Of a DNA stretch of 64,000 bases, positions 4,502-33,958 are shown one piece after another; positions within the stretch are counted from its first letter, which is position 1, and each line of letters begins with the position of its first letter. A program made the translations under genes and the position numbers. This stretch comes from Nitrospira sp. UBA2082 (GTDB taxonomy: Bacteria; Nitrospirota; Nitrospiria; Nitrospirales; Nitrospiraceae): NCBI GenBank assembly GCA_002331335.1, contig DCZO01000014.1, positions 277,088-341,087 on the forward strand. Reading direction: 5' to 3'. Below the pieces are notes generated by a model. It worked only from the letters and a program-made list of their open reading frames with translations. It had not been told where the DNA came from and made no database searches.

Positions 4502-5911
4502 TTAATGGGGGAGGCTCTGCGAGTGCGCCCGAGGATCCACACCCTTGCGTTTGAGTTTTTCGACCAGCGTCGTGCGGTTGAGGTGAAGCAACTGGGCCGC
4601 CCTTGTTGTGACCCCGTTGGCTTTGCGGAGCGCTTCAATGATGAGGTGCTGCTCGTATTGCTCGACTTCCCTGGACAGGTTGATCCCGTCTTCGCTGAAG
4701 CGGATGAACTGCTCGGGAAGCGCCGGAGCAGCCGATCTTCGCACAATTTTTTCCGGCAGATCGCCGGCCGTCACCACCCCCTGCTTCTTGAGGACAACCA
4801 ACCGCTCGATCATGTTTTCCAATTCCCGGATGTTGCCGGGCCACTCGTACTCCGACAAGAGCCGCAGCGCTTCCTGGTCAATGCCGGTGATCGCCGTGCG
4901 CTTGGCTTGATTGAACCGGGCCATGAAATGCTCGATCAGGAGTGGAATGTCGCTGCGGCGTTCCCGCAACGGAGGAATGACGATCGGAATCACGTTGAGC
5001 CGGTAGAACAGGTCGTGGCGAAACCGCTTCTCCTCGACGAGGTCTTCCAGATTCTGATTGGTCGCGGCCACAATGCGCACGTCCACGTGGATCGTCCGAT
5101 TTCCCCCCACCCGTTCGAAGGCTTTCTCCTGTAGCACACGGAGCAGCTTCACTTGGAGCGGCAAACTCATTTCGCCGATCTCGTCGAGAAAAATCGTTCC
5201 CCCGTTGGCCAATTCGAATCGGCCCATCCTGGCCTGCACCGCGCCGGTAAACGCGCCTTTCTCATGCCCGAACAGTTCCGATTCGAGCAAATTCTCCGGA
5301 ATCGCCCCGCAATTCACCGGCACGAGCGGGCGGTCCTTTCGGAGACTGTTGAAGTGAAGCATGCGGGCCACCAGTTCTTTGCCGGTGCCGCTCTCCCCCT
5401 GAATCATGACGGTGCTGTCGCTGTCGGCGACTTTCCGCACAAAATCCAGCACCTGGCGGATCGGCTCACTCGTCCCGACCAGATGCTCTAATCGATATTC
5501 ATCGCGAACGGCCTTGCGCAACAGGTGGTTCTCTTGACGTAACCGCTGGAATTCAACCGCTTTGCGGACGACAACGGCCACCGTCTCAGGGTCGAACGGT
5601 TTCGTAATGAAATCGAAGGCTCCGGCTTTCATGGCCCGCACGGCCATTTCGATCGACCCGAATCCGGTCATCATGATGGGAATGATGTTCGCGTCGAGCC
5701 CGGCCAGGCGTCCGATGATGGTGAGTCCGTCGGTATCGGGCAGTTGCAAGTCGACCACGACGATGTGGACTTGGGTCTCTTTCGCCGCTTGCAACCCCTG
5801 GGCACCGTCCACGGCAGTGGAGACCACGTACCCTTCTTCCCTCAACGTCTCCTGCACGACCTCACGAACGGCAGGATCGTCGTCGATGACGAGAACGTGC
5901 GTCTGACTCAT
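4502..5911 (-). CDS. Sigma-54-dependent response regulator (FleQ/NtrC-like)
   Basis: Receiver domain, [25 protein letters not shown]-terminal Fis-type HTH. Confidence 0.92.
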   Translation of the reverse strand: MSQTHVLVIDDDPAVREVVQETLREEGYVVSTAVDGAQGLQAAKETQVHIVVVDLQLPDTDGLTIIGRLAGLDANIIPIMMTGFGSIEMAVRAMKAGAFDFITKPFDPETVAVVVRKAVEFQRLRQENHLLRKAVRDEYRLEHLVGTSEPIRQVLDFVRKVADSDSTVMIQGESGTGKELVARMLHFNSLRKDRPLVPVNCGAIPENLLESELFGHEKGAFTGAVQARMGRFELANGGTIFLDEIGEMSLPLQVKLLRVLQEKAFERVGGNRTIHVDVRIVAATNQNLEDLVEEKRFRHDLFYRLNVIPIVIPPLRERRSDIPLLIEHFMARFNQAKRTAITGIDQEALRLLSEYEWPGNIRELENMIERLVVLKKQGVVTAGDLPEKIVRRSAAPALPEQFIRFSEDGINLSREVEQYEQHLIIEALRKANGVTTRAAQLLHLNRTTLVEKLKRKGVDPRAHSQSLPH

Positions 5912-6877: not shown

Positions 6878-6953
6878 GCTGGCGTAGCTCAATCGGCAGA
6901 GCAGCGGTTTTGTAAACCGCAGGTTGGAGGTTCGATTCCTCTCGCCAGCTCCA
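6878..6953 (+). tRNA. tRNA-Thr(TGT)
   Basis: 76 nt; GCTGGCG/CGCCAGC acceptor stem, anticodon arm GCGGT-TTTGTAA-ACCGC, GGTTCGATTCC T-arm, CCA end. Confidence 0.97.
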
Positions 6954-9158: not shown

Positions 9159-10577
9159 TTATCGCTCCGCTTCGGTGAGATCCGCTTCGTCTTCGATCTC
9201 TTCCAATTCCGGATCGAGCTTCCCTTTGGTCATCGACGGATGGAGCCCGTATTTCCTGAGCATCTTGTAGAAGTCCGCCCGATACCGTCCGGCAAATTGA
9301 GCCGCGCGGGAAATATTGCCACCGGTCAGCTGGAGCACGTTCTTCAAATACGTCCGCTCAAAGTCTTCCTTGGCTTCGGTGAGCGGCTTGAGCGAGGGCT
9401 CGTGTGAGACGCCGACCGCCGGCAACAGATCCGGTGTCAGCATGTCTTGGCGAGACATGACCACGGCTTTCTCGACGGCGTTTTCCAACTCCCGTACATT
9501 GCCGGGCCACGGGTTCGCCATCAGTCGATTCAGCGCTGCCGGCGTGAATCCCTTCACTTCTTTGTTCGCCCGCTTGACGGCGAGTTTGAGGAAGTGCTGC
9601 GCCAGCAACGGAATGTCGTCGCGGCGGTCGCGCAACGGCGGTATGAACAAGGGCACGACCGAGATCCGGTAGTACAAATCGTTGCGGAACGTGCCTTGTT
9701 TGACCGCTTCGCCAAGATCTTTGTTCGTGGCGGCAATGATGCGAACGTCCACCTTGGACGTGATCTCCGAACCCACCTCACGCACTTCCCGTTCCTGCAC
9801 CGCCCGCAGCAACTTGACTTGCATCGCCAGCGGCATTTCGCCGATCTCGTCTAAAAAGAGGGTGCCCCCGTTGGCCATCTGAAAGAGCCCGCGCTTGGCA
9901 CCGAGCGCGCTGGTGAAGGCGCCTTTCACATGTCCGAACAGCTCGCTTTCAAACAGCGTTTCCGGAATCGCGGCGCAGTTGAGCGCGACGAACGGCCCCT
10001 TGTTCCGCCGGCTGTTCGCATGAATGACACGGGCCATGACTTCCTTCCCGGTCCCGGTCTCGCCGAAGAGCAAAATGGTCGCATCCGAATCGGACACTTG
10101 CGCAATCTGCTGAAACAGCCGCTGCATCGCCGGACTTCGCGCCACGACGTTTTCGAGCCCGTAGAGCTCCTTGACCAGTGATTTGAGACGCTGAATTTCC
10201 CGGCTCATCCGTTGTTGCGCGAGTGCCTTTTCGATCGTGGCCTTGAGTTCTTTGTCATCGAATGGCTTCGTCAAATAGCCGAACGCGCCGCGCTGCATCG
10301 CCTCAACGGCGTTGGGGATGCTGCCGTGGGCGGTGAGAATGATGATCGGCAGACCGGGAAGGATGCGCAACAGTTCCTCGGTCACGTCCAGTCCGTCCTC
10401 GCCGCGCAGGCGCAGATCGGTAATCGCCAAGTCGAACATCCTCTTCTTGGCTGCTCCGACGGCTTCCTGCCCGGTGGTGCATGGAGTCACGGCAAATCCC
10501 ATCGCGGAGAGCCGCATCTTCAACAGGTGCAGCAGCCCCTCATCATCATCGACAACCAGAATGTGTTCCTGTTCCAT
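9159..10577 (-). CDS. Sigma-54-dependent response regulator (GlrR/QseF-like)
   Basis: Receiver domain, GETGTGKE, GAFTSA, WPGNVRELEN; C-terminal NISRAAQFAGRYRADFYKML resembles the GlrR HTH. Confidence 0.88.
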   Translation of the reverse strand: MEQEHILVVDDDEGLLHLLKMRLSAMGFAVTPCTTGQEAVGAAKKRMFDLAITDLRLRGEDGLDVTEELLRILPGLPIIILTAHGSIPNAVEAMQRGAFGYLTKPFDDKELKATIEKALAQQRMSREIQRLKSLVKELYGLENVVARSPAMQRLFQQIAQVSDSDATILLFGETGTGKEVMARVIHANSRRNKGPFVALNCAAIPETLFESELFGHVKGAFTSALGAKRGLFQMANGGTLFLDEIGEMPLAMQVKLLRAVQEREVREVGSEITSKVDVRIIAATNKDLGEAVKQGTFRNDLYYRISVVPLFIPPLRDRRDDIPLLAQHFLKLAVKRANKEVKGFTPAALNRLMANPWPGNVRELENAVEKAVVMSRQDMLTPDLLPAVGVSHEPSLKPLTEAKEDFERTYLKNVLQLTGGNISRAAQFAGRYRADFYKMLRKYGLHPSMTKGKLDPELEEIEDEADLTEAER

Positions 10578-10597
10578 GGTATTCCTTCCACATCGCG

Positions 10598-11362
10598 TTA
10601 CGGCATCGGGTCCGGTACTGGGATCGGCGCCACCGTCGACGGAGGACGAATCGGGCGCACTTTTTCTCTCATTTCCTGATCGATTCGTTTCAACGCTTCC
10701 AGTTGTGTCGACAGTTCTTCAATCTTGCGATCCCGCTCTGCCAGCTGTTTTTGCAAGCTCTGCACGGAGGGCGGATCAGATCGTCCCTGTCCCTTCGAGA
10801 GCAACTCGATCTTGCGGTCCCGCTCAGCGAGTTCGCGCTGCAGTGCCTCAACCGTCTGAAAATCTCCCTCCTTCGTTGAGCGTATCTGCTGAAGGAGTAC
10901 TTCCCTATCAAGCAAATCCCGCACCAGCCGGTCAGCAGCCTGGCCCAACGAGGCATTGGCCCTCCAAATGGCAGGCCAACCCACAATGGCATCGATCCAC
11001 GAAATCGTGCTGGGAGACGGATGCATGTGTAGCAGGTCCATCCACGCCTTGCTTGAGGCGGCTAACTGGCCTTTTGGAGCAATCGCCAGGACCTTCCCGA
11101 AATATTTCTCCGCGACTTCGCGGCTTTCGTACAGGCCGATCAAGGCTCTCGTGAAGTACGCATGATCGCAGGAGCTGGTTTCGGCACACTTGGCCACCAC
11201 GCCCTCTTGCTTCCTTGCAAGCGCTTGAAATGACTTCGATTCGGCCGGATCCGTCACGAAATAGGGCCGATCGAGCGCACTGGGTGACGTCCAGGAGGCG
11301 CACCCCCCTAGAAGCAAGACCAGTGAGGAGCACATGAGGGCTCGTGTGAAGAATCGTTTCAT
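10598..11362 (-). CDS. Lipoprotein with coiled coil (QseG-like position)
   Basis: Lipobox LLLGG|C, helical core, C-terminal coiled coil; lies between kinase and regulator. Confidence 0.7.
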   Translation of the reverse strand: MKRFFTRALMCSSLVLLLGGCASWTSPSALDRPYFVTDPAESKSFQALARKQEGVVAKCAETSSCDHAYFTRALIGLYESREVAEKYFGKVLAIAPKGQLAASSKAWMDLLHMHPSPSTISWIDAIVGWPAIWRANASLGQAADRLVRDLLDREVLLQQIRSTKEGDFQTVEALQRELAERDRKIELLSKGQGRSDPPSVQSLQKQLAERDRKIEELSTQLEALKRIDQEMREKVRPIRPPSTVAPIPVPDPMP

Positions 11363-13987: not shown

Positions 13988-16585
13988 ATGGACATGAATC
14001 GAATGACGGTCAAGTTGCAAGAGGCCTTGCAGACAGCTGCGGGGCATGCTCAACGGCGCAGCCATCAAGGCGTCGATGTGGAACATCTCCTGCTCGCACT
14101 GCTCGATCAGGAAGGGGGAATAACTCCTGCGCTGTTGGAACGGACCGGGGTGACGCTGCCGGCCGTCCGTCAGACTGTCGAGCAGGCATTGACCAAGATC
14201 CCTCAAGTTCAGGGCGCCGGCGCGGCTCCCGGACAGTTACACATGGCCACGCGGCTCGCCCACATCCTCACCAAAGCGGAAGACGAGCAACAGTCCCTCA
14301 AGGACGATTATCTGAGCGTCGAGCATGTGCTGCTGGCCATGGCGCAAGCAGACGGGCCGTTGAAGAAGCTCGGCCTCACGCGCGACCGGCTGCTCAACGG
14401 CCTTCAGCAGGTACGCGGCAGCCAGCGGGTCACCAGCCAGGATCCGGAAGGCACCTATCAATCGCTGGAAAAGTACGGACGGGAGCTGACGCTGCTGGCC
14501 GGCAAAGGCAAGCTCGATCCCGTGATCGGACGGGACGACGAAATCCGCCGCGTCATTCAAATCTTATCCCGGCGGACGAAAAATAATCCGGTCCTGATCG
14601 GTGAGCCCGGCGTCGGCAAGACGGCCATCGTTGAAGGGCTGGCCATCCGCATCGTGAAGGGCGATGTCCCCGAGGGCTTGAAGCAGAAAAAGCTGTTCGC
14701 GCTGGACATGGGCTCGCTTGTCGCCGGTGCCAAGTTCCGGGGGGAATTCGAAGAGCGGCTCAAGGCGGTGCTCAAAGAAATCCAATCGTCCCAGGGACAA
14801 ATTCTCCTGTTCATCGATGAACTGCACACCGTCGTCGGAGCCGGCGCCGCGGAAGGCGCGATGGACGCGGCCAACCTGTTGAAGCCGCTGTTAGCGCGGG
14901 GGGAACTGCATCTCATCGGCGCGACGACACTCGATGAGTATCGCAAGCACATTGAGAAAGACGCGGCGCTGGAACGGCGGTTCCAGACCGTCTTCGTCGA
15001 CCAGCCGTCGGTGGAGAACACCGTGTCCATCCTGCGCGGACTCAAGGAACGGTATGAGGTCCACCATGGGGTCCGGATCAAGGACAGCGCCCTGGTTGCG
15101 GCCGCGAAGCTGTCGCACCGGTACATCTCGGACCGGTTTCTGCCGGACAAGGCCATCGACTTAGTCGATGAAGCGGCGGCCCGCCTGCGAACCGAAATCG
15201 ACAGTTTACCGGCCGAATTGGACGAGGTCTCGCGCAAGGTCCTCCAATTGGAAATCGAGCGGGAAGCATTGAAGAAAGAAAAAGACCCGGCGAGCGCGGC
15301 CCGCTTGGCGACGCTCGAATCGGAGCTGGACGACAAACAACGCGAGCTCCAGACCTTGAAAACCCAGTGGGAATCGGAAAAGGCCTCCGTCTCGCGCCTG
15401 CGTAAGACACGCGAAGCGATCGAAGAAGTCAAACGCCATATTGAACAGGCGGAACGCGCCTATGATCTGAACCGCGTGGCCGAACTCCGCTACGGAGAGT
15501 TGCCTCGTTTGGAACGGGAGCTCGGCATCGAACAGCAACAGCTGGGGAAAAAGCAGCACGAAGCCAAGCTCCTGAAAGAAGAAGTCGATGAGGACGAAAT
15601 CGCGGCGGTCGTCAGCCGCTGGACCGGTATCCCCGTCTCCCGCCTGCTCGAAGGCGAAACCGACAAGCTGTTGAAGCTGGAGGACCTGCTGCACCAGCGG
15701 GTGGTTGGGCAGGAGGAAGGGGTTCGCGCCGTGGCCGACGCCGTGCTCCGCGCGCGCTCCGGCATCAAAGATCCGAACCGCCCGATCGGCTCATTCCTGT
15801 TCCTCGGCCCCACCGGTGTCGGCAAAACGGAGCTGGCTCGTGCGTTGGCTGCCATTCTGTTCGACGACGAAGGGAACCTTGTCCGGATCGACATGTCGGA
15901 ATATATGGAAAAGCACACCGTCGCGCGCTTGATCGGCGCCCCGCCCGGCTATGTCGGCTATGAAGAAGGCGGCCAGTTGACGGAAGCGGTCAGGCGACGC
16001 CCGTTCTCCGTCATCCTGTTCGATGAGATCGAAAAGGCGCACCACGACGTGTTCAATGTCCTATTGCAAGTCCTGGACGACGGGCGGCTGACCGATTCCC
16101 AAGGCCGTACGGTCGATTTCAAGAACACGGTCCTGATCATGACCTCCAACATCGGCAGTCCTCAAATCCTTGAAGCACAGCAGCAGGGCGCCCGCTACGA
16201 ACAGATGCGGACCGTCGTCATGGATGAGCTGCGGCAGCATTTCCGTCCGGAGTTTTTGAACCGGGTGGATGAAGTGGTCGTGTTCCATCCGCTGGGCACG
16301 GAACATCTCGTGCAAATCGTGGAGATTCAGCTGCAGCGGCTGCGCCAGCGGCTCGAAGAGCGGCGCATCACCCTCGCGCTCAGTCCGGCGGCGCTCCGGC
16401 AACTGGGCGAGCGGGGCTATGACCCGGTCTACGGAGCGAGGCCGCTCAAGCGGCTCATCCAGCAGGAACTGGAAACGCCGATCGCGCGCTTGTTGGTCAA
16501 AGGAGAATTGCGGGACGGCGATACGGCAGCGGTCGATGTCAAAGACGGCGGAGTCGTCGTCGTACCGACCGTGACCAAGGAGTGA
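13988..16585 (+). CDS. clpB: ATP-dependent chaperone ClpB
   Basis: Clp-N repeats, two AAA+ modules ([16 protein letters not shown]), coiled-coil M domain, GARPLKR; 865 aa. Confidence 0.98.
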
Positions 16586-16607
16586 ACACTCTCTAGCCGA
16601 TCGAGAC
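16442..16607 (+). repeat. Direct repeat copy 1 (clpB 3' end plus 22 bp)
   Basis: Aligns without gaps to 20901-21066; 14 mismatches in 166 bp by manual count. Confidence 0.95.
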
Positions 16608-16851
16608 AGGGCCGACTGTTGGCTCCTACACTCTTTGAGGCTGGGTGTGATGACGGTTGATGAAAACCCTGGGCGTCAGATTCCCAATGGCATTATGCCT
16701 CCACTCTTCATAATACCCTCGTCACCAGACTTCAATCGCAAGCCTCGCTTCTGACCGTTATTAAGTATTAAGACGATACATCAAACTAGGCATCGCCAGC
16801 TGACCACTGCCAGCGAAACTAAACAATTACCACACCAGCACCCCCTTCATC

Positions 16852-19800
16852 TTAGGTGCAGTGCCAGATAATTCGTACCACCTGATGTCCAGCGGCACCA
16901 TACTGGATTACGGTCAGTCGAGCCCGTGCTCTGCAAGCGCGATGCACAAGTTCTTCCATGGCCTTTTCCCTCGTGTGAAAGGTATGCCTAGTCGCGCCAC
17001 ACGCATCGAGCACAAAGCCTTGGAAATCGCCGAAGCAGTCATACAGAATCTCCGCGACCTTGCCCGTGACTCGTGCGCCTGTTTCATCAGAAACTTCCGT
17101 GCCGGACCAGTGTCCACCCGTCCCCTCCGGAGACGCCACTATGCGGTCTGGATCACCTCCGAACGCCCGCACACGCGCAGCGATCTCGTCCAGGTACCGT
17201 CCGAATACCGGCACCCATCGGTTACCTGGCGCGAGAATGCTTGCCCGATGGCGCAGGAGCGCGAGCCTGTGTTCTTCTGCAGCCAATAGGAGTGGACCGC
17301 GACTGACTGGTATCGTAAATTGAAACGCGCCCATAACTTTCCTATGGGTGCCGGAAATTTGATGAAGGGAGATCTTAAAGAGCTGTCCTTCTCGAACAGT
17401 ATCCGGCAATTGAACGCTGAGTAAGCCTGGAATATTTACAACCCGATTGCCAGGAATCGGCAAAAGCGTTACATCTCCGACGCGGCATTCTACCGTATGA
17501 GAATCGACTAACCGACACATACCTGCACTCGGCTTCAATGAAGCCACTTCGAGCAACTCCCTTACATCGACATCAGGCCAATAGAACCTCGCCACACTTT
17601 CTCGCGGAAGATTATTCCACCGTACAAGAAGCTGATCGTGCATCAGTGGTTTTGACACACCAGCAGCACCTGCTTTTGCTTCCGCGACATGATGGCCATG
17701 TGCCAATTCAGGGACAATCACGGTTGGCTGTGCTGACAACGCCGGAAGCGCTTCGGGCAACTTCGGCCACACAGGCGATGGGCGCAACTCAAAGGTATGC
17801 TGAACGAGATGGCCATCACCTCCACCAGGGTTATCGGATTTGACGATGACAAGATTGCGCTGTGCCAAATTGTCGTTGTCGCCAGGCGTCGCTCCCGGCG
17901 GTATCGGATCATCCGCGAAGTTCACCTCAGCCACCAGACACTGATGTTGATCGATGATATGCTCCTGAATACTCAAAAGTGGGCCGGTGCCTCCGGTACC
18001 GTTGGCGTTCGGCTCACGCCGGTAAATATCAGTGCTTGGCTGATTGATGTCCAACCAACATCCGAAATACTCGACCTCGTCACTACCCGTCCCATTTAGC
18101 GGTCGCACGTTTTGGGGATCATCCTGTAATTCGAGATTCCCCACACGCGCCGCAGCAAAGAACGGAATAGAGACAACCTCATTTCCCGCCAAACCAATCA
18201 GCGGACGCACGGTCGACCCGGTCGTATAGACTGGATACGTCGACGGCCGAAATTCCATCGAGGCAGCCGCTGTCGTAAACATTCGAAAAAACACCCGAAC
18301 ATGTTCGGCGTTCTGCCCCACCGGCGCCCGATACCGTACGCGAGCGAAAGCGTAGTTATAGATTTTCTTGCCACTGAGGACTGGGGCAAGCTCAAGCGGG
18401 CTTTCGGCCTGGTCGGTCTTAAGGTCGCGCTCGAACGGATGTGTGATTCCTTCCGGGCGAGCACGCAACTCCGCAAGTACCCCATCGAGAAACCTGTACG
18501 GGGCGTTGACATCAGCCTCTTGCGTAACGCTTGCGAATGTTTCGTCTTGAGCAATTTGCAGCACGCGCACGTCGAGGCTGAGCCAGTGAGGGTTTCCGTC
18601 GACCATATAGGGATTTTTCCGCTTGAACAAGGTTACGTTGCCTCGTGTTTCATGTCCTCCCCTCTGAACAATAATGGAAACAGAACGTATTTCGGCAGAA
18701 CCCAAGGCGCTGAACGCAGAAACGTTGGTAAAGCGGATCGAGTAGACAAGCACAATCTTCTGCCCAATTCCAGGCGATGCACTACCGCTCTCAAACAACG
18801 TACGTTCCAACCGAGCACTCATGCCGGGAACGGTACCTCCCCCATTCCCCCACTGAAACAAGATAGATGGTCCACCCGGCAACCCAGCATCGCCAGACAC
18901 AAACCCGTCCATAACGACATAGAACGCGTCGTAAAACGTCGCCGGGTTGCCCATTGTACTGACTTCCATCTCAGAGAAATGACTGCGGTCGGTGATGACG
19001 TACATTGCACCACCGACTCGGATGAACCGCGCATACTGGCAAGGACGGCCACCTTCGTCGATTAAGAACAACATGTAGTGTCCAGGAGGGGCAACGGCTC
19101 CATGGGGCGGCGCTGTCAGTGTGAGTGCTGTCCCTTCACGCCCTTTGATCGCGAGCTCGATGCACCGTTGGTCCAGGTTAATGGAGTGAGTCATTGACCC
19201 ACACCGGATTAAGGCTGCGCGACGGATACTCGCCGCCTCTGGGCTCCGCACAGTGAACAGTTGCCCATACGCCACATTCGATGGACAATCGGATATCCTT
19301 GGTCGTGTGCCTGCTGGATAAGGCGGCGTAAAGATCTCGGCGTTCAGCACACGGCGGTCCACTCCTCCTTCGGTCCTAGCGGAATTCACGTTCGAACCCG
19401 CTGTCCACACACGTCCATCAGGAAGCAGCAACATGGTGGAATGATAGTTGCGCACTTGCTGAGCCGGTTCTTCGATTGTCTGCCAGCTATCGGTCACGGG
19501 GTCGTATAGTTCCGGTGCTTGTACCCCTGTGGCGTCGTTCGCCCTATCCTCTGCTCCTCCAACCACCACGACCTTACCAGTTGGGAGCAAGACAGCCCCT
19601 GAATTGTTCCGAACCTTTCCTGCTGCCGATCCAACTCGCGTTCCAGCGTTCTGCCATGATGGACTGGTAGCCCCCAAATCAAGCTTCATCGGTTGGACAG
19701 CCCCGGTCACCAAAATTCGAGCACGATAGTTGTCTTCAGGTGACAAGGGTAGGATGACTGAAGAAATGGCCCCGCCGGCAGGCCCAGCGGTCACAACCGT

Positions 19801-20481
19801 CGCGGCTCCTGTCCAGGAGTCGTATCGCATGGTTCCACCGCCAGAATCCACTACGAGAACAAGCCCATCGGCTGGAATCACGTGCATCCGTGCATATCCA
19901 CCCACTCCTGGAAGCGCTGGCATCCGCGTCCACGAATTGGTCGCTGGCAAGTACCGCTCTGGCGTGTCATTCTCATGACGTGTATCGTCACCCGCAGGAT
20001 GTCCGCCCACGGCCAGCAATTGTCCATTCGGTAGAGTCAAGATGGTTGGATACCATCGGCCTCCGCCAGTATCGTTCATCTCCTGACCGGGCTCTGGACC
20101 AAATCGAGCAATTTCAGAAAAACCGGGCGCGAACGGGTTGTAGACCCAACAGCGCCGTTCGGCTGTGAAGTGTCCAAGCATGCCATGTTCGCCTGGAGCC
20201 TCGGCCTCATATGTCGCTGTTCCGCCCCCGATCAGCAGTCGTCCATCGGCCATGAAGGCATGGCCACAACAAAACAGATCGGCTGGTGGAGATGACACGT
20301 ATGTGATGGCTTCTGTTCGGCAATTGAAACGGCGAGACTTATCAATGCTATTCATCAGTAATGCTGGTGGGCTGTGCTCGTCGCCGCCGAAATAGATTAC
20401 CTCGCCATCACCATTTGGAGTTGGCACAACAGCTGCGTGAATGGCACAGATTTCCGAATTAATAAGCGGTCCCCACGGCAT
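16852..20481 (-). CDS. 1209-aa copper radical oxidase (galactose/glyoxal oxidase-like kelch + DUF1929) fused to a ~720-aa uncharacterised C-terminal module
   Basis: DLFCCGH, GRWYPT, RNYHS...LLPDGRV, GSMTHS.N.DQR, APPGHYMLFL correspond to the Cys, Tyr, Tyr-His and His copper/cofactor positions of galactose oxidase; no signal peptide. Confidence 0.88.
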   Translation of the reverse strand: MPWGPLINSEICAIHAAVVPTPNGDGEVIYFGGDEHSPPALLMNSIDKSRRFNCRTEAITYVSSPPADLFCCGHAFMADGRLLIGGGTATYEAEAPGEHGMLGHFTAERRCWVYNPFAPGFSEIARFGPEPGQEMNDTGGGRWYPTILTLPNGQLLAVGGHPAGDDTRHENDTPERYLPATNSWTRMPALPGVGGYARMHVIPADGLVLVVDSGGGTMRYDSWTGAATVVTAGPAGGAISSVILPLSPEDNYRARILVTGAVQPMKLDLGATSPSWQNAGTRVGSAAGKVRNNSGAVLLPTGKVVVVGGAEDRANDATGVQAPELYDPVTDSWQTIEEPAQQVRNYHSTMLLLPDGRVWTAGSNVNSARTEGGVDRRVLNAEIFTPPYPAGTRPRISDCPSNVAYGQLFTVRSPEAASIRRAALIRCGSMTHSINLDQRCIELAIKGREGTALTLTAPPHGAVAPPGHYMLFLIDEGGRPCQYARFIRVGGAMYVITDRSHFSEMEVSTMGNPATFYDAFYVVMDGFVSGDAGLPGGPSILFQWGNGGGTVPGMSARLERTLFESGSASPGIGQKIVLVYSIRFTNVSAFSALGSAEIRSVSIIVQRGGHETRGNVTLFKRKNPYMVDGNPHWLSLDVRVLQIAQDETFASVTQEADVNAPYRFLDGVLAELRARPEGITHPFERDLKTDQAESPLELAPVLSGKKIYNYAFARVRYRAPVGQNAEHVRVFFRMFTTAAASMEFRPSTYPVYTTGSTVRPLIGLAGNEVVSIPFFAAARVGNLELQDDPQNVRPLNGTGSDEVEYFGCWLDINQPSTDIYRREPNANGTGGTGPLLSIQEHIIDQHQCLVAEVNFADDPIPPGATPGDNDNLAQRNLVIVKSDNPGGGDGHLVQHTFELRPSPVWPKLPEALPALSAQPTVIVPELAHGHHVAEAKAGAAGVSKPLMHDQLLVRWNNLPRESVARFYWPDVDVRELLEVASLKPSAGMCRLVDSHTVECRVGDVTLLPIPGNRVVNIPGLLSVQLPDTVREGQLFKISLHQISGTHRKVMGAFQFTIPVSRGPLLLAAEEHRLALLRHRASILAPGNRWVPVFGRYLDEIAARVRAFGGDPDRIVASPEGTGGHWSGTEVSDETGARVTGKVAEILYDCFGDFQGFVLDACGATRHTFHTREKAMEELVHRACRARARLTVIQYGAAGHQVVRIIWHCT

Positions 20482-20900
20482 TCGTCAGCCCTCCTCTGAG
20501 GTTATCTCCTATCAGCTTCCACAGGGGAGACATGGTTGTCTTGCCCCTCGATTGATTGAACTCTAAAAGTACGTCTAGCAATCGTTATGCCGCCCTGACA
20601 CCACCCATCTCATCGGAAGCACTCGCACCTATTTTTCTCAAAATCGATCTTTGATGAGCTTTAGTCTCTGCATCGCAGATACAATCATGAGCAAGGTATC
20701 CAATTGCTTGAACACACATGAGTGCTTCCTCGATCTTCGCGTCGTTGCTATCTCAGGAATGCTTTTTCAATCTTGAAACAGGTTCTTTTGTGAAGATCAA
20801 TCGATTAAGAAGCGATGCGAGTATATCCGTTAGGATACTGAGCGAACAAGATACAATGTCTTCGAAACTAGCAGTCCCGCATCCTGCCTACAGAACCTCA

Positions 20901-21066
20901 CCGCTCAAGCGGTTCATCCAGCAGGAATTGGAAACGTCGATCGCGCACTTGTTGGTCAAAGGAGAATTTCGGGATGGAGATACGGCAGCGGTCGATGTCA
21001 AAGACGGCGGAGTCGTCGTCGTACCGACCGTGACGGCGAAGTGAAGGCCCTCTAGCCGATCGAGAC
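20901..21066 (+). pseudogene. Direct repeat copy 2: decayed clpB 3' fragment
   Basis: PLKRFIQQELETSIAHLLVKGEFRDGD...TAK* versus [27 protein letters not shown]...TKE* in clpB. Confidence 0.93.
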
Positions 21067-21489
21067 GGCGCCGCCTTTCGCGTCGATGGTCTGGCCGGCC
21101 TTCGTCTGCTTCTCGATCTTCCATTGTTTGGCCGACACTTCGAAGAGATGGCCTTTCATCGTGTAAAACTCCGCGTGTGAGCACGACACAAGGCCGGGGG
21201 CTTTCACATCAAGTTGGAGCAACACCCTCCCCGAGTCCGTTTCCTTCAGGGCCACACGCTCGACGGTTTTGTTCACATCATAGGCGCGCCGCTCGTTGAA
21301 CATCAGCGTGCTGTCCACCATCTTGGCCAGCATCCGACCGTCCGCATCGAACAAGGCAAAGTTTACCAACAGCGCACCTGTTGAAGCATGCCGGGCCACC
21401 TGGATTTGCGGTACCCCTTCGATTTCGATCGTGCCGTCTGAATTGCGGTAGAGATTGGAGCCGACTTCGATATCCATGATCGGGGTCAA
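21052..21489 (-). CDS. Hypothetical beta-rich protein
   Basis: 145-aa ORF; its stop lies inside repeat copy 2. Confidence 0.75.
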   Translation of the reverse strand: MTPIMDIEVGSNLYRNSDGTIEIEGVPQIQVARHASTGALLVNFALFDADGRMLAKMVDSTLMFNERRAYDVNKTVERVALKETDSGRVLLQLDVKAPGLVSCSHAEFYTMKGHLFEVSAKQWKIEKQTKAGQTIDAKGGAVSIG

Positions 21490-21755: not shown

Positions 21756-23285
21756 TTATGCGTCCGGGCTGCGGTCGAACGAGCGGTACTGGATGGCCTC
21801 CGCCACATGCATGGCCTCAATCTTATCAGACTCGGCAAGATCGGCAATGGTGCGCGCGACGCGTAGAATGCGTCCGTGTGCCCGTGCCGATAGCCGTAGC
21901 CTGGTCATGGCCTGCTCAAGCAGATCTTGTGTCGGCTGATCCAGCCCACAATACCGTTTCAGCTGCCGCGGCTTCAATTGGGCATTCGTGTAGATGCCGT
22001 CGTTCCGATAGCGAAGACGCTGGCGGTCGCGAGCCGCCACGACCCGCGACCGGATCGCCGCCGACCCTTCGGTGGAAGGTTGTTCGCTCCGCAGTTCCCG
22101 AACCGGCACCGGCGGCACGTCCAGATGAAGATCCAGCCGGTCGAGCAGCGGGCCGGACAGTTTTGCCCGGTACCGGCGAATCTGCGCGACTGAGCAGACG
22201 CAGGGCCTCGTTCGGTCCCCGTAGTAGCCGCACGGGCACGGATTCATGGCCGCGACCAGCATGAACCGCGCAGGGTACTTGAGTGACCCGCTGGCCCTCG
22301 TCAACGTGACGTGGCCGTCTTCCAGCGGCTGCCGCAACCCCTCCAGTACGCCCCGTTTGAATTCCGGCGATTCGTCGAGAAACAGCACCCCGTTATGGGC
22401 CAACGAAACTTCGCCGGGTCTCGGCACCGTGCCACCGCCGACGAGACCGGCGTCGGAAATGCTGTGATGCGGAGCGCGGAAAGGACGCACTGTCAGTAAG
22501 GGCCGCGCAGGCGCCAGTTGACCGGCGACACTGTGCACCCGCGTCGTTTCAATGGCTTCATCCAAATCCAGAAGAGGCAGAATCGACGGCAGACGGCGCG
22601 CCAGCATCGTCTTACCGGACCCGGGAGGGCCGACCATCAACACGTTATGCCCGCCTGCCGCCGCGACTTCGAGCGCCCGTTTCGCGTGATCCTGTCCACG
22701 CACGTCGCTGAAGTCTTCGTCCTCGATCGGTCGGCCGGACTCGATCATGCCGCGGTTCGACACGCACGGCGCGATCGCTTGGCCTCCTCTCAAAAACTCC
22801 ACCGCCTCGGGTAATGTCTGAATGGGATACACGCACACCCCGTCGACCAGCGAGGCTTCGGGGCCGTTTTCAGCCGGCAGCAACAATTCGAATCCTTTGC
22901 GGCACACCAAGCCGAATGACAACGACCCGGTGACCGGCTTCACGCGTCCGTCGAGCGAGAGTTCTCCGATCAGCACGCGCCGGTTCAGCGCCTCCGGCGA
23001 AATGACTTCTTCCGCGACGAGAATACCAACCGCGATCGCCAAATCCAGTCCCGATCCTTCTTTCTTGATCCCCGCCGGCGCGAGATTGACCGTGATGCGT
23101 TTGGCGGGAAAGTGGAAGCCGCTGTTCTTCAGTGCGGAGCGGACCCGATCACGGCTTTCCTTCACCGTCGCGTCGGGCAAGCCGACGACGGAAAATTGCG
23201 GGAGGCCGCCCGCAATATCGACTTCGACATCCACCAGGTGGGCATCGAGACCGACGAGCGCTGCGCTCGTCACCTTAGCGAGCAT
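21756..23285 (-). CDS. comM: YifB/ComM Mg-chelatase-like AAA+ ATPase
   Basis: MLAKVTSA...GLPDATVKESRDRV, GPPGSGKTML, PFRAPHH, GEVSLAHNGVLFLDE, MNPCPCG. Confidence 0.95.
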   Translation of the reverse strand: MLAKVTSAALVGLDAHLVDVEVDIAGGLPQFSVVGLPDATVKESRDRVRSALKNSGFHFPAKRITVNLAPAGIKKEGSGLDLAIAVGILVAEEVISPEALNRRVLIGELSLDGRVKPVTGSLSFGLVCRKGFELLLPAENGPEASLVDGVCVYPIQTLPEAVEFLRGGQAIAPCVSNRGMIESGRPIEDEDFSDVRGQDHAKRALEVAAAGGHNVLMVGPPGSGKTMLARRLPSILPLLDLDEAIETTRVHSVAGQLAPARPLLTVRPFRAPHHSISDAGLVGGGTVPRPGEVSLAHNGVLFLDESPEFKRGVLEGLRQPLEDGHVTLTRASGSLKYPARFMLVAAMNPCPCGYYGDRTRPCVCSVAQIRRYRAKLSGPLLDRLDLHLDVPPVPVRELRSEQPSTEGSAAIRSRVVAARDRQRLRYRNDGIYTNAQLKPRQLKRYCGLDQPTQDLLEQAMTRLRLSARAHGRILRVARTIADLAESDKIEAMHVAEAIQYRSFDRSPDA

Positions 23286-23412
23286 GCAAGAGCCAGCCTT
23301 TCCACGCTGAAATGAGGCGCGATTATAGGAATTCTTCCGAAGTGTTTCAATAGAACGGTCGGGCAGCACCGGCGCTAACATCTTGTGGCCGAACGCGGTA
23401 TAATCCGCCCCC

Positions 23413-24075
23413 ATGCACCTCTGGTCCTTCTCCCAGAAGGAACCCTTCGTTGGGATCGTGCCACGATCGACACGTAGACTCCGGCTGGCCTGTCTTAGTA
23501 TGGGGATGCTTGTGGTTCATGCTACCAACGGTGTACTTCCGGAGAGACCATCTGCCTTCGCCTCACCCGCTCCCATTCAGATACAGCGATCGGGAAAAGC
23601 CGCCTCCCCTCACGTGGGCGCGGCGATGGCTGTGCTCGCGACACTCGAACAGTCGCGCGTGCTTCCTCCTGAAGGCACCGTGGAGGCCAATCGCATCATC
23701 AAGTCCGTCATCCAACTGCAATCCCTGTTCACCAACAAGACGGACCCCGCAGTGCAGGAGTTCTTGCAACATGCGGTGGCACGCAAACACGGAGATCGGA
23801 CGGCACAGGTTGTGACGCAGTTTCACTCAGGCGGCTGGACTCCGGACGTGCTGGAAGCGCTCGCCGATGCGGTCCTCCTGAGCCCAACGGAAGTGCTTGC
23901 GCGGCTCGCGCCGGGGCTTGCATTAGTGAACCTCTCGGTGGATGACTTGCAGCACTTCATGCAACTGGTTCGGAACAGCGAGCGGGCGCTGGCAGATGCC
24001 GGGAAGAATTTTCATGATGTCTTTATCTCCCACCGAAAGATGATGCCGGGAGCGGCAGGACGGTCACTACACTAA
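23413..24075 (+). CDS. Hypothetical protein, probably exported
   Basis: 220-aa helical ORF with a signal-like segment; start uncertain. Confidence 0.65.
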   Translation: MHLWSFSQKEPFVGIVPRSTRRLRLACLSMGMLVVHATNGVLPERPSAFASPAPIQIQRSGKAASPHVGAAMAVLATLEQSRVLPPEGTVEANRIIKSVIQLQSLFTNKTDPAVQEFLQHAVARKHGDRTAQVVTQFHSGGWTPDVLEALADAVLLSPTEVLARLAPGLALVNLSVDDLQHFMQLVRNSERALADAGKNFHDVFISHRKMMPGAAGRSLH

Positions 24076-28224: not shown

Positions 28225-28644
28225 ATGACTTACCTTAAGTTGCTGGGTATATCCTTTGCCATTTTTACTTCCTTCATCTCGGCGTCACACGCAGGCAATG
28301 TAGAGCCAACAAGAAACCCAGAAGAGATTATGCTCTCCCAAGAAGAAGTAAAGTTTGTTCGGTGGTTGATTGCGACAGATGACATGATTAAGACAGCCAG
28401 CCAAGAAGGACAATTACTATATTGGCTCAATAAGGCCATTTCCATTGTGGCGCCAGGACCAATTAAGCTTATACAGCAGTGGAACATGGGTGCCCTTGAG
28501 GGCTGGAGAAAGGCAAACAAGAAACTTGTGACGCTTAAGAGGCAGGTGCATTGCGAGAGAATTCATCTCCGGATTTCTGAGGAAACAGAGAATAGTCCAT
28601 TTTTTGAAAAACTATATAAAGCTAGAGGGTGCGAAGAGAATTAG
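28225..28644 (+). CDS. Secreted hypothetical protein
   Basis: Signal peptide ending ASHA; two C-terminal Cys; AT-richer than the core genes. Confidence 0.65.
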   Translation: MTYLKLLGISFAIFTSFISASHAGNVEPTRNPEEIMLSQEEVKFVRWLIATDDMIKTASQEGQLLYWLNKAISIVAPGPIKLIQQWNMGALEGWRKANKKLVTLKRQVHCERIHLRISEETENSPFFEKLYKARGCEEN

Positions 28645-28865
28645 CGTTTTTAATTCCGTGCTCACAATTTTCCCCTACTGGTGCCTCCTTGGCGAGAAGC
28701 TTGCAGGATCATCACTCTTTCTTTGGAGGGCCATCGCAACATCGCGCATTTCCGATCGAGTCCACCGAGGCAGATCAGAACCAACCAATGCAATTTATCC
28801 AAGTAGTTCAGTCCTCGATCGCGGCTCAATATATCCGTCACAAATCCACAAAGGAGGATCACTTC

Positions 28866-29234
28866 ATGATTACGCTTCTCAGTTTATCTCGTCTACTTCT
28901 AATGACCATCGCAATCGTTTTTGCTACGGTTCCAAGTGGGTTTGCCTTCGACCTGAAGAAGGTAGATTCGTCATCTCGTAATGGAAATGTGGATTCAGAC
29001 TTTGAGTTCACGGTAAACAAGGCGGAAGCGAACACCCTTGGATCGACTGAAATGAAAGCCACGCTTCTAGTTTTCTGCACTCAAGCTCTTGGGCCATTGG
29101 GGCCTGTGGCTGCTAAGTTTGTCGGCGAACATTTAGATCAAATCAAGCAGACAGCCACCGAAAATGGCGCCTACATCAAGATGACTATCCGTAATGGAAC
29201 TGGTCTCCATATCTGGGAGGTGTACCCTCTCTAG
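28866..29234 (+). CDS. Secreted hypothetical protein
   Basis: RBS AAAGGAGG before ATG 28866; signal peptide ending GFA. Confidence 0.7.
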   Translation: MITLLSLSRLLLMTIAIVFATVPSGFAFDLKKVDSSSRNGNVDSDFEFTVNKAEANTLGSTEMKATLLVFCTQALGPLGPVAAKFVGEHLDQIKQTATENGAYIKMTIRNGTGLHIWEVYPL

Positions 29235-29331
29235 ATGACAATGAAGAGCCCTGCTCTTACAGGTGAGACCTCCTTGAGCGAGAGGCATTTGCAAGCACGC
29301 ACCCCGAGACGAAGGATTGGAAAAAGATAAT

Positions 29332-30087
29332 CTACCTTCTTCGTTGCTTGTATTTTCTTTGCCGATCGCGAGAGATTATGGAGAGTGAGCGTGTCGCTGA
29401 TAAGGGTGAAGCACCATGAGAATATCGTAGCCTGAAATGCGGTATGGAGCATTCGCTGACCGTGATGGTCTCAGCGAAAACCTCGCCCGCAAGATTGAGG
29501 GATTTGGAAAAGGGTCGAGTGGACGTATTATAGAAGTTTCTAATAATAAAACCGATGAAATCATATGGGGTTAAAGGCGCACTCACTGGTATTCGACAAT
29601 CCTTATATTGTCCGAGCGTGAGATGGCTCTTCGGATGATCAACCTCTACATGCACCGATGGAGAACTATTGAAATCGAAGCGAATTGGGAATGGCACCAC
29701 AGGACGGGATAGCATGTCTGCAAAGATGTCGTCATTCAGATAAGATTCCTGGTCTGTCTGGAAGCTTTCCAAGTCTGGGGAGGGGAAAAATGCCAGTCTA
29801 TGTGACCACAGGTGGTCACTCTGGAATGTGTATAACATCTGAATCAATGACCCATCGATCATTTTCAGATGATATGCACCAGCCTTTTCAAGAGTTCTGT
29901 ATATATGGTTATATGAAACGTTCTTAAGCGCTACAGCCAGACTGTTCGCATCCTTGACCGTGACTTGAACTCCGCCTCCCTGAAGTGGTTGCACCGTCGG
30001 GAAGTTTTGGGAGTCGCAGAGGCTAAGAGAGACAACCTGGGTAATTATGCTTCTGGCTTGGCGTAAGATTTCCCTCTGAGTTATCAC
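29332..30087 (-). CDS. DUF2290 domain protein
   Basis: SHRLAFFPSP, PIRFDF, HPKSHLTLGQYKDCRIPVSAPLTPYDF..FI.RNFY; GTG start overlaps the helicase stop (GTGA). Confidence 0.85.
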   Translation of the reverse strand: MITQREILRQARSIITQVVSLSLCDSQNFPTVQPLQGGGVQVTVKDANSLAVALKNVSYNHIYRTLEKAGAYHLKMIDGSLIQMLYTFQSDHLWSHRLAFFPSPDLESFQTDQESYLNDDIFADMLSRPVVPFPIRFDFNSSPSVHVEVDHPKSHLTLGQYKDCRIPVSAPLTPYDFIGFIIRNFYNTSTRPFSKSLNLAGEVFAETITVSECSIPHFRLRYSHGASPLSATRSLSIISRDRQRKYKQRRR

Positions 30088-32219
30088 TTCTTTCCGTGTC
30101 CAAGCAGCCTTCTAAATTTAGCAATCACTTCGTCTGGATAATCATCAAGAACTGTTTCTCCGCTCTCAAGTGATTCCAGGATATCTTCAAGGCTTAACTG
30201 CTTCTGGCGAATTCTTTTCTTCTCTTCTGCGGTCATATCTCGGTTGATTACTCGCAGCTGTGCGCGCTCTTGAGCCGTTGGGTACTTAAACCGAAGTTGA
30301 TATTGGGATTTTCTCACTCTTTCAAACTCTTTCTCGAGCTTCTCCATATCCTCGCCATACCCAATGACTCTTACCCAGGCTTTACTCCGCGTAATTGCAG
30401 TAAACAATCTGTTTCGCACACGAGCCAAATCTCCACGCCAAGCAGCATAGCAATCTTGTGCATTAATCACGTAGACCATCGCAGCTTCATTTCCCTTTGC
30501 TCGAAAAATCCCTGTAAAGGTGACCTTATCTCCCTCAAAGAACACATCCGGAGTTGTTGAAACTCCAGCAAGGCTCGAGTTTATTCCCTTTTCCAATAGC
30601 CTCTTTCTTGCCTGTGACACTGCGCTTCGTGTAGTAATGGGATCTGGATTGATAACTATGATGTCGCCCGGCTGGAGTTCATCTTTCTGAAGATTGTGCA
30701 CGATCTCACTTACTAGCCATTCTATCTGCGCATCATCGGTGGCGAAACTCTTAAACCTGATAAGATCCTCCAGCGGTGAGTGAAGCTCTAGGAACTCGGG
30801 GCTTGTATCTCTGGACCTTGAAAGCGTGACCTGTTTACCTTCCTCAAATTGTCCATTAACAATGCCATAACCTATATCGAGCCAAAGTTCCTTGTGGTCA
30901 AACATTTGAATTAGCCCTTCCGGCTCGCGGTAGATTCCAAAGCCTAAGGCATGGGCTGTTGTTAGGATAGGGCGCGAGTTTCGGTAACATTTCTCCAGAA
31001 TTATGTCCTGTCTGGGTTTCCCAGCTATCGCCGGAGAAAAAACTACGCGAGGCTGGCCATCTCCACTCTTGCCAAAGATTTCTTCAGGTGGGGGAAGGGA
31101 CTTGTTCGTCAGGCTCTGCAGTTCGTCGTAGGCGTACACAAGGCGCTTTGGCTCTCGAAGGTATTCGTAACAGAGAAGGAGAAAGTTGGGAGAAAAGTCT
31201 TGAGCCTCATCAACTAAGATCGCATCGTATGTGGGTTTAAACTGTTTCGTTTCCTGCAAGGCTTTTTCGCATACCCCTTCGAATTCCCGTCCTGACCCAA
31301 AGGTGGATCGCGCGGCTCTATAGTCCAAGTATTCAATGCCGTGGTCTTTGCAGAAGCTATAGTAAATTCCAGATTTATCTTCACCTGGAGAGCCCCAGGC
31401 ATTAATTATGTGAATGTTATCCCAGTCAGGTTCTTCATTCGTCTGCTCAATGACAAAGGTGTTGATAAGACTTTCAAACTGGCCCTTTAGGGATCGTGTA
31501 TGGAATGTTACCGCTATTTTCCAATCCTGATTTTGCGCATGAAGGTATGCAACCTTAAGCGCGAGTACGATTGTTTTTCCAGATCCAGCCAATCCACGGA
31601 TTCTCTGCACGCCTTCGAATGTTTCTATTACTGCGGCGCTCTGAATGTTGTCGAGGTTTGCAATTGAATCCTCGAGAGCTCTTAATTTGCTCCCTTTCGA
31701 CAGAGGATCTTTTGTCTCCCGCTTTTTCTTCCCTTTCTTGATGGTTGAGATTGACTGGATTGCAGCGACTGCAGCAGGAAAGTACCGTTTCTCCTCTACT
31801 GTTAGCCCGGCAAGGAAGCCTCCGATGGTTTTCAGGTTGCAGATCGGATGCCCAGACGTTGTTATGGCTGAAGTGTTAGTAATTGCTGGCGCAAAGGAAA
31901 CACAGGATGGAAGGATTGCCAGGGTACGCCCTTTAACGAGGGCTTTGTGTTGCAGGAGCTTAGCTTGTAGCTTTGTGAAGCTCTCGTCTTGTGCAAGAGC
32001 AAATTCACTTGGATCTTTACCTTCCACAATATGGAAAATAACGATACCTGAGTTTGGACTAAGCAATAGGGCATCTATCCGAAAAGGACCTTCTGGCGTT
32101 CCTATTATTGGATAGCCAATGTAAAGCGTGCCCTCCATGTCAGGTTGACTGGCAAAGAAGTTTGCTAGCTGCTCACTGGCTACGGGTTTTCTAGTACTGC
32201 CCCAAATTGTCTTAACCAT
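30084..32219 (-). CDS. Superfamily-1 (UvrD-like) helicase partner of DUF2290
   Basis: GLAGSGKT, ILVDEAQDF, YRNSRPI, TGIFRAKGNE, RNRLFTAITRSK; nuclease-like N-terminus; probable start MVKTIWG. Confidence 0.9.
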   Translation of the reverse strand: MVKTIWGSTRKPVASEQLANFFASQPDMEGTLYIGYPIIGTPEGPFRIDALLLSPNSGIVIFHIVEGKDPSEFALAQDESFTKLQAKLLQHKALVKGRTLAILPSCVSFAPAITNTSAITTSGHPICNLKTIGGFLAGLTVEEKRYFPAAVAAIQSISTIKKGKKKRETKDPLSKGSKLRALEDSIANLDNIQSAAVIETFEGVQRIRGLAGSGKTIVLALKVAYLHAQNQDWKIAVTFHTRSLKGQFESLINTFVIEQTNEEPDWDNIHIINAWGSPGEDKSGIYYSFCKDHGIEYLDYRAARSTFGSGREFEGVCEKALQETKQFKPTYDAILVDEAQDFSPNFLLLCYEYLREPKRLVYAYDELQSLTNKSLPPPEEIFGKSGDGQPRVVFSPAIAGKPRQDIILEKCYRNSRPILTTAHALGFGIYREPEGLIQMFDHKELWLDIGYGIVNGQFEEGKQVTLSRSRDTSPEFLELHSPLEDLIRFKSFATDDAQIEWLVSEIVHNLQKDELQPGDIIVINPDPITTRSAVSQARKRLLEKGINSSLAGVSTTPDVFFEGDKVTFTGIFRAKGNEAAMVYVINAQDCYAAWRGDLARVRNRLFTAITRSKAWVRVIGYGEDMEKLEKEFERVRKSQYQLRFKYPTAQERAQLRVINRDMTAEEKKRIRQKQLSLEDILESLESGETVLDDYPDEVIAKFRRLLGHGKK

Positions 32220-32429
32220 CGCGCCCTTCACTGAAAGGAGAATTGCTTCAGAAGTATGAACCAGAATGGCTAAGTCAGGCAATGCCCCCCTTCTTCTCGA
32301 AGCAGACGACAACTCTTGGACTGGCTACGATCAAAAGGGAACTGAACGTGTGTATGACCTTCCCCCCGAAAACTAGACCATTGGCTTGGAAGTTCATCTG
32401 TGCTGAGATGGGCCCCACAGGAGGGGGCC

Positions 32430-32696
32430 ATGACACGGAAACGGCACACGGAGGAACAGATCATTGCGGTGCTCAAGGACGCCCAGGCGGGCACCGGAGT
32501 GCAGGAGCTCTGTCGCAAGCACGGCATCTCGGACGCCACCTTTTATAAGTGGCGGACCAAGTATGCAGGACTGGAAGTCAGCGACGTGAAGAAACTCCGC
32601 CAGCTGGAAGACGAAAACCGGCGGTTAAAACAGATGGTGGCGGACCAAGCCCTGGACATCCAGGCGCTGAAAGCGATCACCGCAAAAAACTGGTAG
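32430..32696 (+). CDS. IS3 transposase OrfA (HTH)
   Basis: [16 protein letters not shown]...[11 protein letters not shown]; A6C slippery site at 32684-32690. Confidence 0.93.
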
Positions 32697-33559: not shown

Positions 33560-33645
33560 TAAACGGGGGAAGGTCATGTAGATCCGACAACGGCGTCAAG
33601 TCTGAATATTAACTTATTCTCTCACAACACCTAGACACTTTCCCT

Positions 33646-33713: not shown

Positions 33714-33724
33714 GCGTCCACCGT

Positions 33725-33943: not shown

Positions 33944-33958
33944 AATGTGGGCAGTCTA

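Follow-up and report, generated by a model that had tools for sequence, protein, structure and literature searches.

An oxidase islet without a recombinase gene between two copies of the clpB junction in Nitrospira sp. UBA2082

This report concerns a 64-kb stretch of DNA from Nitrospira sp. UBA2082 (64,000 nt, here called the window, to which coordinates refer unless another locus is named) and a small islet within it. The islet, made up of nt 16618-20882 together with one copy of a flanking repeat, is a horizontally acquired, recombinase-free piece of DNA that carries a single oxidase gene and lies in the junction between clpB and a convergent gene for a 141-aa protein. Its insertion has left the junction in two copies, close relatives have the site empty, and a distant Nitrospira lineage (locus L016) holds a related cassette at the same place. 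Homology-driven single-crossover (Campbell-type) insertion and excision of an integrase-free circle is the best explanation we have found, with about an even chance of being correct. The feature is real but fairly ordinary, an integrase-free insertion at a genus-wide hotspot, and as such of a broadly known kind. Nitrospira includes key nitrite oxidisers and complete ammonia oxidisers, few of which are cultured, and the gain of accessory genes in the genus is poorly known. The locus is a clean natural example of one gene that moved between distant Nitrospira lineages into the same junction without a recombinase of its own. The parts of the locus are as follows.

13988-16585, plus strand: intact clpB, 865 aa, ending in VVPTVTKE and a stop (Pfam Clp_N, AAA, AAA_lid_9, AAA_2 and ClpB_D2-small)
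16424-16617, plus strand: left repeat copy, with the real 3' end of clpB (to 16585), a 7-nt spacer and a stub of the neighbour gene (repeat search, alignment)
16520-16575, plus strand, partner 20979-21034: 56-nt block without differences between the copies (alignment, Logan depth)
16618-16851, no strand: non-coding cassette DNA 3' of the oxidase gene, GC 0.49, starting with a strongly decayed remnant of the neighbour gene (composition, alignment)
16852-20481, minus strand: cargo oxidase gene, 1209 aa (Pfam, PDB and NCBIfam matches)
20482-20882, no strand: cassette-specific AT-rich region (GC 0.45) upstream of the oxidase gene (composition, comparison with L016)
20718-21044: the other open reading frame (ORF) called in the interval, a chimera of 108 aa with 61 cassette-derived codons fused to the clpB stub (Pfam ClpB_D2-small match)
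20883-21076, plus strand: right repeat copy, with a dead clpB 3' stub (20901-21047, ending in TAK and a stop), a 7-nt spacer and the real 3' end of the neighbour gene (repeat search, alignment)
21052-21477, minus strand: convergent neighbour, hypothetical protein of 141 aa, kept and convergent with clpB across the genus

The region contains one repeat family, a direct repeat of 194 nt (16424-16617 and 20883-21076, spacing 4459) with 169 of 194 positions identical. Three families of direct repeats of at least 45 nt occur in the whole window, and the clpB-end pair is by far the longest. An earlier reading made from the sequence alone had described the copies as 16442-16607 and 20901-21066 with about 14 mismatches; this 166-bp span has exactly 14 and zero gaps, and forms the greater part of the full repeat. 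Alignment also confirms the contents it had assigned to each copy, the last ~47 codons of clpB and the VSIG end of the convergent gene. The left copy holds the last 47 codons and the stop of clpB, and nt 16593-16607 (CTAGCCGATCGAGAC) encode VSIG and the stop of the neighbour, with weaker similarity to about 16620. Past the repeat, the decayed remnant of the neighbour gene retains 34% identity over 88 nt, against a null of 25 ± 4.5%. The clpB 3' end is thus duplicated as that reading had it, but the duplicated unit is the whole convergent junction, and the clpB-proximal copy in L016 takes in 84 nt of the neighbour gene's 3' end. Each copy holds an uninterrupted junction of the empty-site form, so the event duplicated the whole junction and placed the cargo between the copies.

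The 4.3-kb interval between the copies has a single long ORF (16852-20481, minus strand). The sequence-only reading had found the oxidase gene alone here, with no integrase, transposase or tRNA, and this holds for the gene-like ORFs. The oxidase ORF has no recombinase match in Pfam or NCBIfam, smaller overlapping ORFs lying outside the library search, and a scan covering 19 of the larger ORFs of the window gave no tyrosine or serine recombinase. The tRNA genes of the window are at 6878-6953 and 36577-36666 only, and none is in the interval. The nearest transposase, an unrelated IS3 (32549-33559), is 12 kb away, and the cassette ends carry no terminal inverted repeats. A scan of the cassette for promoters and terminators gave matches no more frequent than in shuffled sequence. 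Segments of the AT-rich region are kept in L016, among them an imperfect palindrome (AGTATATCCGTTAGGATACT, near 20821-20840). The region of L016 matching the chimeric ORF is poorly conserved, with large indels, which makes the ORF, annotated by gene callers, unlikely to be a real gene.

The source is a metagenome-assembled genome (MAG), and contigs of k-mer assemblies do end at the repeat (L003, 4463 bp; L016, 4591 bp), so that a chimeric join at the repeat, made in assembly or binning, has to be weighed. The sequence-only reading had named such an artefact as one outcome that would undo it. The structure is identical in three independent assemblies: the NCBI MAG (GCA_031969995.1), the ENA assembly and the Logan assembly. 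In run X1 the depth is even over the flanks (18.2 and 17) and the cassette (16.8), and the contig of the 56-nt core has a depth of 34, twice that of the flanks. The two copies differ at 25 of 194 positions and are therefore distinct loci, and 4463 bp is the exact length expected of a Logan contig when a k=31 graph breaks at the 56-nt repeat. An artefact is scarcely credible in the face of these results. The same arithmetic (spacing 4459) led us to reject L003 as a candidate circular form of the islet.

The sequence-only reading had pointed to the locus downstream of clpB in related genomes as the place to look for empty sites and alternative cargos, and both were found. In L005-L015 and L022 the clpB stop is followed by 7 nt and the stop of the neighbour, a gene 97-98% identical to that of the window, and over the 738 nt of clpB that precede the repeat the window is 99.2% identical to L005, one of these empty-site relatives. 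A contig from run X4 (7083 nt, depth 16.3) is likewise empty; it matches the left copy up to 16614 with five differences and then continues into the neighbour gene. Run X7 has cassette contigs identical to the window at depth 2.3 and an empty-type allele at a depth of about 8, so occupied and empty strains coexist in one sample. Comparison of the composition of cargo and flanks, another check proposed from the sequence, gave a third-position GC content (GC3) of 0.544 for the oxidase gene against 0.69-0.76 in ten host genes of the window. The islet is horizontally acquired foreign DNA, and the view of it as a genuine foreign insertion is borne out.

The oxidase of L016 is 90% identical to that of the window (88.3% in nucleotides, third-position identity 0.756) and lies at the same junction, where a pair of clpB-end repeats again flanks it. 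The L016 repeats are direct, 157 nt long, run to the contig end and are about 96% (95.5%) identical to each other. Their boundary inside clpB falls within about 12 nt of that in the window. The clpB ends of L016 are about 94% identical to those of L041 and L049, and in the L016 lineage clpB, the neighbour gene and comM are only 76-80% identical to their counterparts in the window (third-position identity 0.49-0.57). The oxidase copies are far less diverged than these host genes, which indicates that the cassette moved between the lineages after their split. It lies at the same junction in both, distant as these Nitrospira lineages are. Apart from the homologue at 90%, there are a few at 61-69% and the rest are at 49% or below (Actinomycetota, Nitrososphaeraceae, Bacteroidota, Bacillus plasmids). 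Those of 61-69% (L017-L021, L108, L109) are in unrelated contexts, without flanking repeats and without clpB, and the association of oxidase and clpB is confined to the window lineage and L016. Scanned with the oxidase, metagenome contigs gave distant homologues only (at most 49% identity) and viral contigs no match; a plasmid search returned only homologues of at most 36% identity. The two lineages share no element-borne attachment (att) sequence independent of the host: the right copy of the window and its L016 equivalent are ~77% identical, and each is 87-95% identical to its local clpB.

The junction was surveyed in 80 Nitrospira loci, one genome per species. The 141-aa gene has 903 homologues, and all those with a named source are labelled Nitrospira or Nitrospiraceae. 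It is present in 80 of 80 species loci, 78 of which, N. moscoviensis among them, have clpB downstream of it in convergent orientation. Most loci have 7-20 nt between the two genes, the full range being from within 20 nt to about 3 kb. About 10 species carry an intergenic stretch of about 100-280 nt, and in at least eight of them (L023, L039, L041, L044, L047, L051, L070, L077) a dispersed element resembling a miniature inverted-repeat transposable element (MITE) or a repetitive extragenic palindrome (REP) lies at the junction. This element is ~160-210 nt long, has a conserved hairpin (GAGGCATACT..AGTATGTCGAG) and terminal inverted repeats (GCAGGATGCT / AGCATCCTGC), and occurs in the window at 33960-34156, 45560-45718 and 49396-49554 and in L023 at 10427-10640; some loci have several copies per 20 kb. 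Inserts of kilobase scale number six, of which four had their large ORFs scanned and L036 was scanned in part, L027 falling outside the scan. Their cargo includes an NDH-2 gene (L092, L098), an AAA_21 ATPase and DUF4276 pair with a PIN-domain gene (L082, 10871-13298, without a clpB duplication), a porin-like gene (L029), and NDH-2 with a DUF433/DUF5615 pair (L036); the set in L082 is defence-like or toxin–antitoxin (TA)-like. Integrase-type cargo was seen at the junction in none of the 80 loci and among none of the cargo ORFs scanned. The clpB/141-aa-gene junction is a genus-wide general hotspot with varied cargo. The duplication is not specific to clpB, as similar ones around other cassettes involve an NDH-2 3' end in L036 and the neighbour's 5' end in L080.

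The two repeat copies differ in an uneven manner. Within the 166 bp there are 7 mismatches in the first 78 nt, 0 in the next 56, 7 in 15 and 0 in the last 17. A permutation test puts the identical run at P=0.037, the cluster at P=0.0015 and the two jointly at P=0.0004. After the 56-nt core the left copy ends in ACCAAGGAGTGAACACT, and the counterpart sequence past the core is ACGGCGAAGTGAAGGCC. The left copy is of local type throughout, with the TKE end and spacer found in L005 and L022, and the whole of it, the 56-nt block included, is present in the empty X4 contig. ClpB ends in TKE both in the intact left copy and in the nearest strains with an empty site (L005, L022 and the X4 contig). The right copy translates as PLKRFIQQELETSIAHLLVKGEFRDGD and onward to TAK and a stop (motifs PLKRF..ETSIAH..GEFRD..TAK) and differs from the left by L>F, P>S, R>H and L>F in addition to the TAK end; bases specific to it are 20913T, 20928T, 20937T, 20947A and 20969T. 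Aligned with relatives, it has three to four private non-synonymous changes, synonymous differences common to other lineages, and a TAK end that is the state of L023-L026. The four amino-acid changes had been taken as decay after displacement, and as changes private to the right copy they fit decay of a pseudogene. The same reading had the cassette giving clpB a new C-terminus. This is probably the reverse of what happened, TKE being native in the empty-site relatives; from the alignments the right copy looks like a decayed older or foreign clpB end, the intact gene keeping its locally native one. Outside the window's copies the nearest match to the 56-nt block is in L024 (3 mismatches), with about 11 in L005 and L023. 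The block is plausibly a crossover or gene-conversion tract, and the copies may also have a mosaic history. A conversion patch in the left copy, first proposed from the comparison with L005, is weakened by the presence of the same 56-nt segment in the empty-site contig of X4.

Under the favoured explanation, a circular, non-replicating DNA that carried the oxidase gene along with another Nitrospira strain's copy of the clpB-neighbour junction would have recombined with the chromosomal junction by a RecA-type single crossover, which would duplicate the junction (190-280 nt; about 190 nt is recognisable in the window and at least 260 nt in L016). Both flanking genes would remain intact, each accompanied by the decaying stub of the other. 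Recombination between the repeats would delete the islet precisely, giving an empty site and a 4.46-kb circle, and recombination in the conserved flanks could transfer the islet between strains. Selection would retain only those insertions that spare both genes. Integration of a suicide vector by a Campbell event likewise leaves the insert flanked by a direct duplication of the cloned homology segment, and is reversible between the copies. The islet is identical in form, each of its copies being a potential chimera; it differs in being a natural case, with a 4.3-kb single-gene cargo and a presumed circle. The sequence-only reading had offered either a Campbell-type crossover or an integrase acting on clpB as its chromosomal attachment site (attB). 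The anatomy is what the first would leave; for the second, no integrase was seen among the cargo ORFs scanned at the 80 loci, and similar duplications occur at other genes.

One of these duplications is in L036, where a direct repeat of the NDH-2 3' end (3864-3933 and 4784-4853) surrounds the DUF433/DUF5615 TA pair; an NDH-2 stub ending in PRLRLLKKTANDE and a stop adjoins the 141-aa gene, and the intact NDH-2 end is on the far side. The architecture of this cassette is the same as that of the oxidase islet, at a different gene. In L080 two copies of a ~310-360-nt segment (283-640 and 2359-2721), made up of the 141-aa gene's first 33 codons and the region upstream of them, enclose a 1.7-kb cassette with a Uma2-family endonuclease gene, and an intact 141-aa gene lies on one side. 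Such analogous duplications at other genes are evidence against a clpB-specific integrase and for a homology-driven or duplication-generating process. Repeats flanking small cassettes in L041 and L089 were not counted as further examples, since they consist of intergenic sequence of unclear nature.

The same results bear on whether the islet could be the remnant or satellite of a site-specific integrative element, of the type called a cis-mobilisable element (CIME), with attL and attR kept, the integrase lost or acting in trans, and attB in the 3' end of clpB. A CIME is defined as retaining its att sites after losing the genes for integration and transfer (ICEberg 2.0, PMC6323972), and direct repeats around cargo without recombination genes match that anatomy. 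Like CIMEs and other integrase-less islands, the islet consists of cargo alone, has direct repeats at a protein-coding gene's 3' end and is missing from the site in relatives. The remnant adjoins the downstream host gene, as in elements that replace gene 3' ends, and two lineages use the same position in clpB. In contrast to such elements, no cognate integrase-bearing element was found at the site in the survey, the larger ORFs of the window that were scanned lack a recombinase, as stated above, and the repeats are long, diverged and host-like, following the local sequence and not a common element-borne attP. The duplicated unit covers two genes: similarity of the copies runs past both sides of the 56-nt identical block and into the neighbour gene, which would be expected of a whole duplicated homology segment and not of a short att core. 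With similar duplications present at unrelated genes, a CIME-like origin is decidedly improbable. A literature search for clpB as an attB gave no case; the ICE (integrative and conjugative element) att-1 site of Pseudomonas syringae described as 'near clpB' is a tRNA-Lys gene adjoining clpB, not clpB itself.

Insertion hotspots that mostly lack integrases and spread through recombination in their flanking regions were described by Touchon et al. 2009 (PMC2617782). The Nitrospira junction resembles them in that the same core-gene pair brackets varied accessory DNA (oxidase, NDH-2, the AAA_21, DUF4276 and PIN set, the porin-like gene, the TA pair and the MITE-like repeat), no integrase is seen, and flank recombination gives mosaics. 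It differs in the 190-280-nt junction duplication of the oxidase islet, which simple double-crossover replacement does not yield. These hotspots favour an alternative in which a one-off illegitimate insertion, for instance by staggered-break repair or by a replication template switch that took in foreign DNA and resumed upstream, made the duplication, and later spread and loss proceeded by double-crossover recombination in the flanks with occasional gene conversion and no circle. Flank-driven turnover would be expected to give a hotspot like the one seen across the genus, with its many cargos and its MITE-like element. Local-type sequence in the flanking genes reaches as far as the repeats. 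The lengths of the junction duplications vary between genes (about 70, 190 and 310-360 nt), which fits a non-specific event that generates duplications, and clustered mismatches beside an identical block fit gene conversion. On the other hand, flanks that are only 76-80% identical between the two carrier lineages make flank-mediated transfer hard, and the repeat boundary in clpB is at nearly the same place in both. The account requires either transfer of the whole structure followed by local overwriting of both copies, or the same event twice, and we regard it as rather unlikely while giving it serious weight. Were the islet only the relic of one such event, spread by flank recombination, it would be an ordinary hotspot islet.

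Several observations weigh against the single-crossover explanation as well. No circle or excision junction was seen in Logan contigs, which cannot phase across the 56-nt core, and the explanation gives no account of the origin of the first junction-bearing circle. Homologous recombination is inefficient between junctions only 78-87% identical, and each copy is nearer to the local clpB than to the copy of the other lineage, so that closely related donors or gene conversion would be needed. Around the majority of the other cargos of this hotspot there is no duplication of any kind, and the fine mosaic of the copies does not give a unique history (left copy of native type, right copy with TAK like L023-L026, segment c like L024). 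If the circle-plus-homology route is nevertheless true, many 'integrase-free' islets in uncultured bacteria could be explained likewise, and the clpB/141-aa junction, which the cultured N. moscoviensis shares, would be a candidate place in which to try marker insertion. More speculatively, Nitrospira might have a general recombinase-independent route by which small cassettes (a single gene, TA pairs, a nuclease gene) are inserted with a 70-360-nt junction duplication, the flanking genes staying intact. The captured junction copy would then serve a circular intermediate as its homology 'address label', directing re-entry at that site in other lineages. The oxidase islet of the two lineages, the TA cassette of L036 and the Uma2 cassette of L080 would all three exemplify a single mode of cassette mobility that has not so far been described, an idea that we think will most likely prove wrong.

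Compared with other known systems, the islet has the direct repeats at both ends and the empty site in relatives that characterise an integrative element, and lacks an internal recombinase and a common att. It is not an integron gene cassette, as there is no inverted repeat at the cassette ends and no integrase among the ORFs scanned. Insertion sequences, composite transposons and MITEs produce target duplications of 2-15 bp, against 194 nt here, and the islet has no terminal inverted repeats. Tycheposons and tRNA islands (bioRxiv 10.1101/2020.12.28.424599) resemble it in the growth of hotspots by repeated insertions that leave partial 3' ends of target genes; tycheposons use tyrosine recombinases and tRNA genes, neither of which is found at the oxidase islet.

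The cargo protein fits a radical copper oxidase of the galactose oxidase/GlxA superfamily by its domains and predicted motifs. Residues 1-490 form a radical-copper-oxidase (GlxA/galactose-oxidase-like) propeller and E-set domain, with Pfam matches to GO-like_E_set (7e-22), Kelch motifs and Glyoxal_oxid_N and PDB matches to 4unm (Streptomyces GlxA, 1e-34), 5c86 and 1gof. Aligned to 4unm, it keeps DLFCCGH (FCCGH), RWYPT, RNYHS (NYHS) and THS, which from what is known of galactose oxidase we take to be the catalytic Cys (of the Tyr-Cys crosslink), the crosslinked Tyr, the axial Tyr-His and the second His. The likeness to Streptomyces GlxA and the fungal galactose and glyoxal oxidases lies in these first 490 aa and their Cys, Tyr, Tyr-His and His motifs. 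Unlike Streptomyces GlxA, the cargo scores 186 bits against the NCBIfam GlxA equivalog NF052501 (cutoff 800), and so is not a GlxA orthologue by that test; it has no signal peptide obvious by eye at its N-terminus, and it carries an added module of 720 aa. This C-terminal part (residues 480-1209; window 16852-19044) is modelled by AlphaFold2 with a mean confidence (pLDDT) of 83 as beta-sandwich domains, a helical hairpin and a small terminal domain, and a Foldseek search with it gave only weak multi-domain beta-sandwich matches, with a template modelling (TM) score of about 0.1. This large, uncharacterised copper-radical-oxidase fusion protein has a patchy distribution across bacteria and archaea. 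Plasmids of Ralstonia solanacearum encode a homologue of the C-terminal module (33% identity over 720 aa) joined to an S53 peptidase, and the metagenome loci L104 and L106 have the module with no oxidase domain; by these sequence matches it is a portable module.

Two other features of the window may be mentioned. Two genes from the islet is a gene for a Mg-chelatase-like AAA+ protein of the ComM/YifB type (21756-23414); ComM aids the integration of transforming DNA in naturally competent bacteria. Further along, at about 28600-34700, there is a second probable low-GC island, in which a DUF2290 gene and a UvrD-like helicase (29332-32312, GC3 0.45) stand beside the IS3-family transposase mentioned above.

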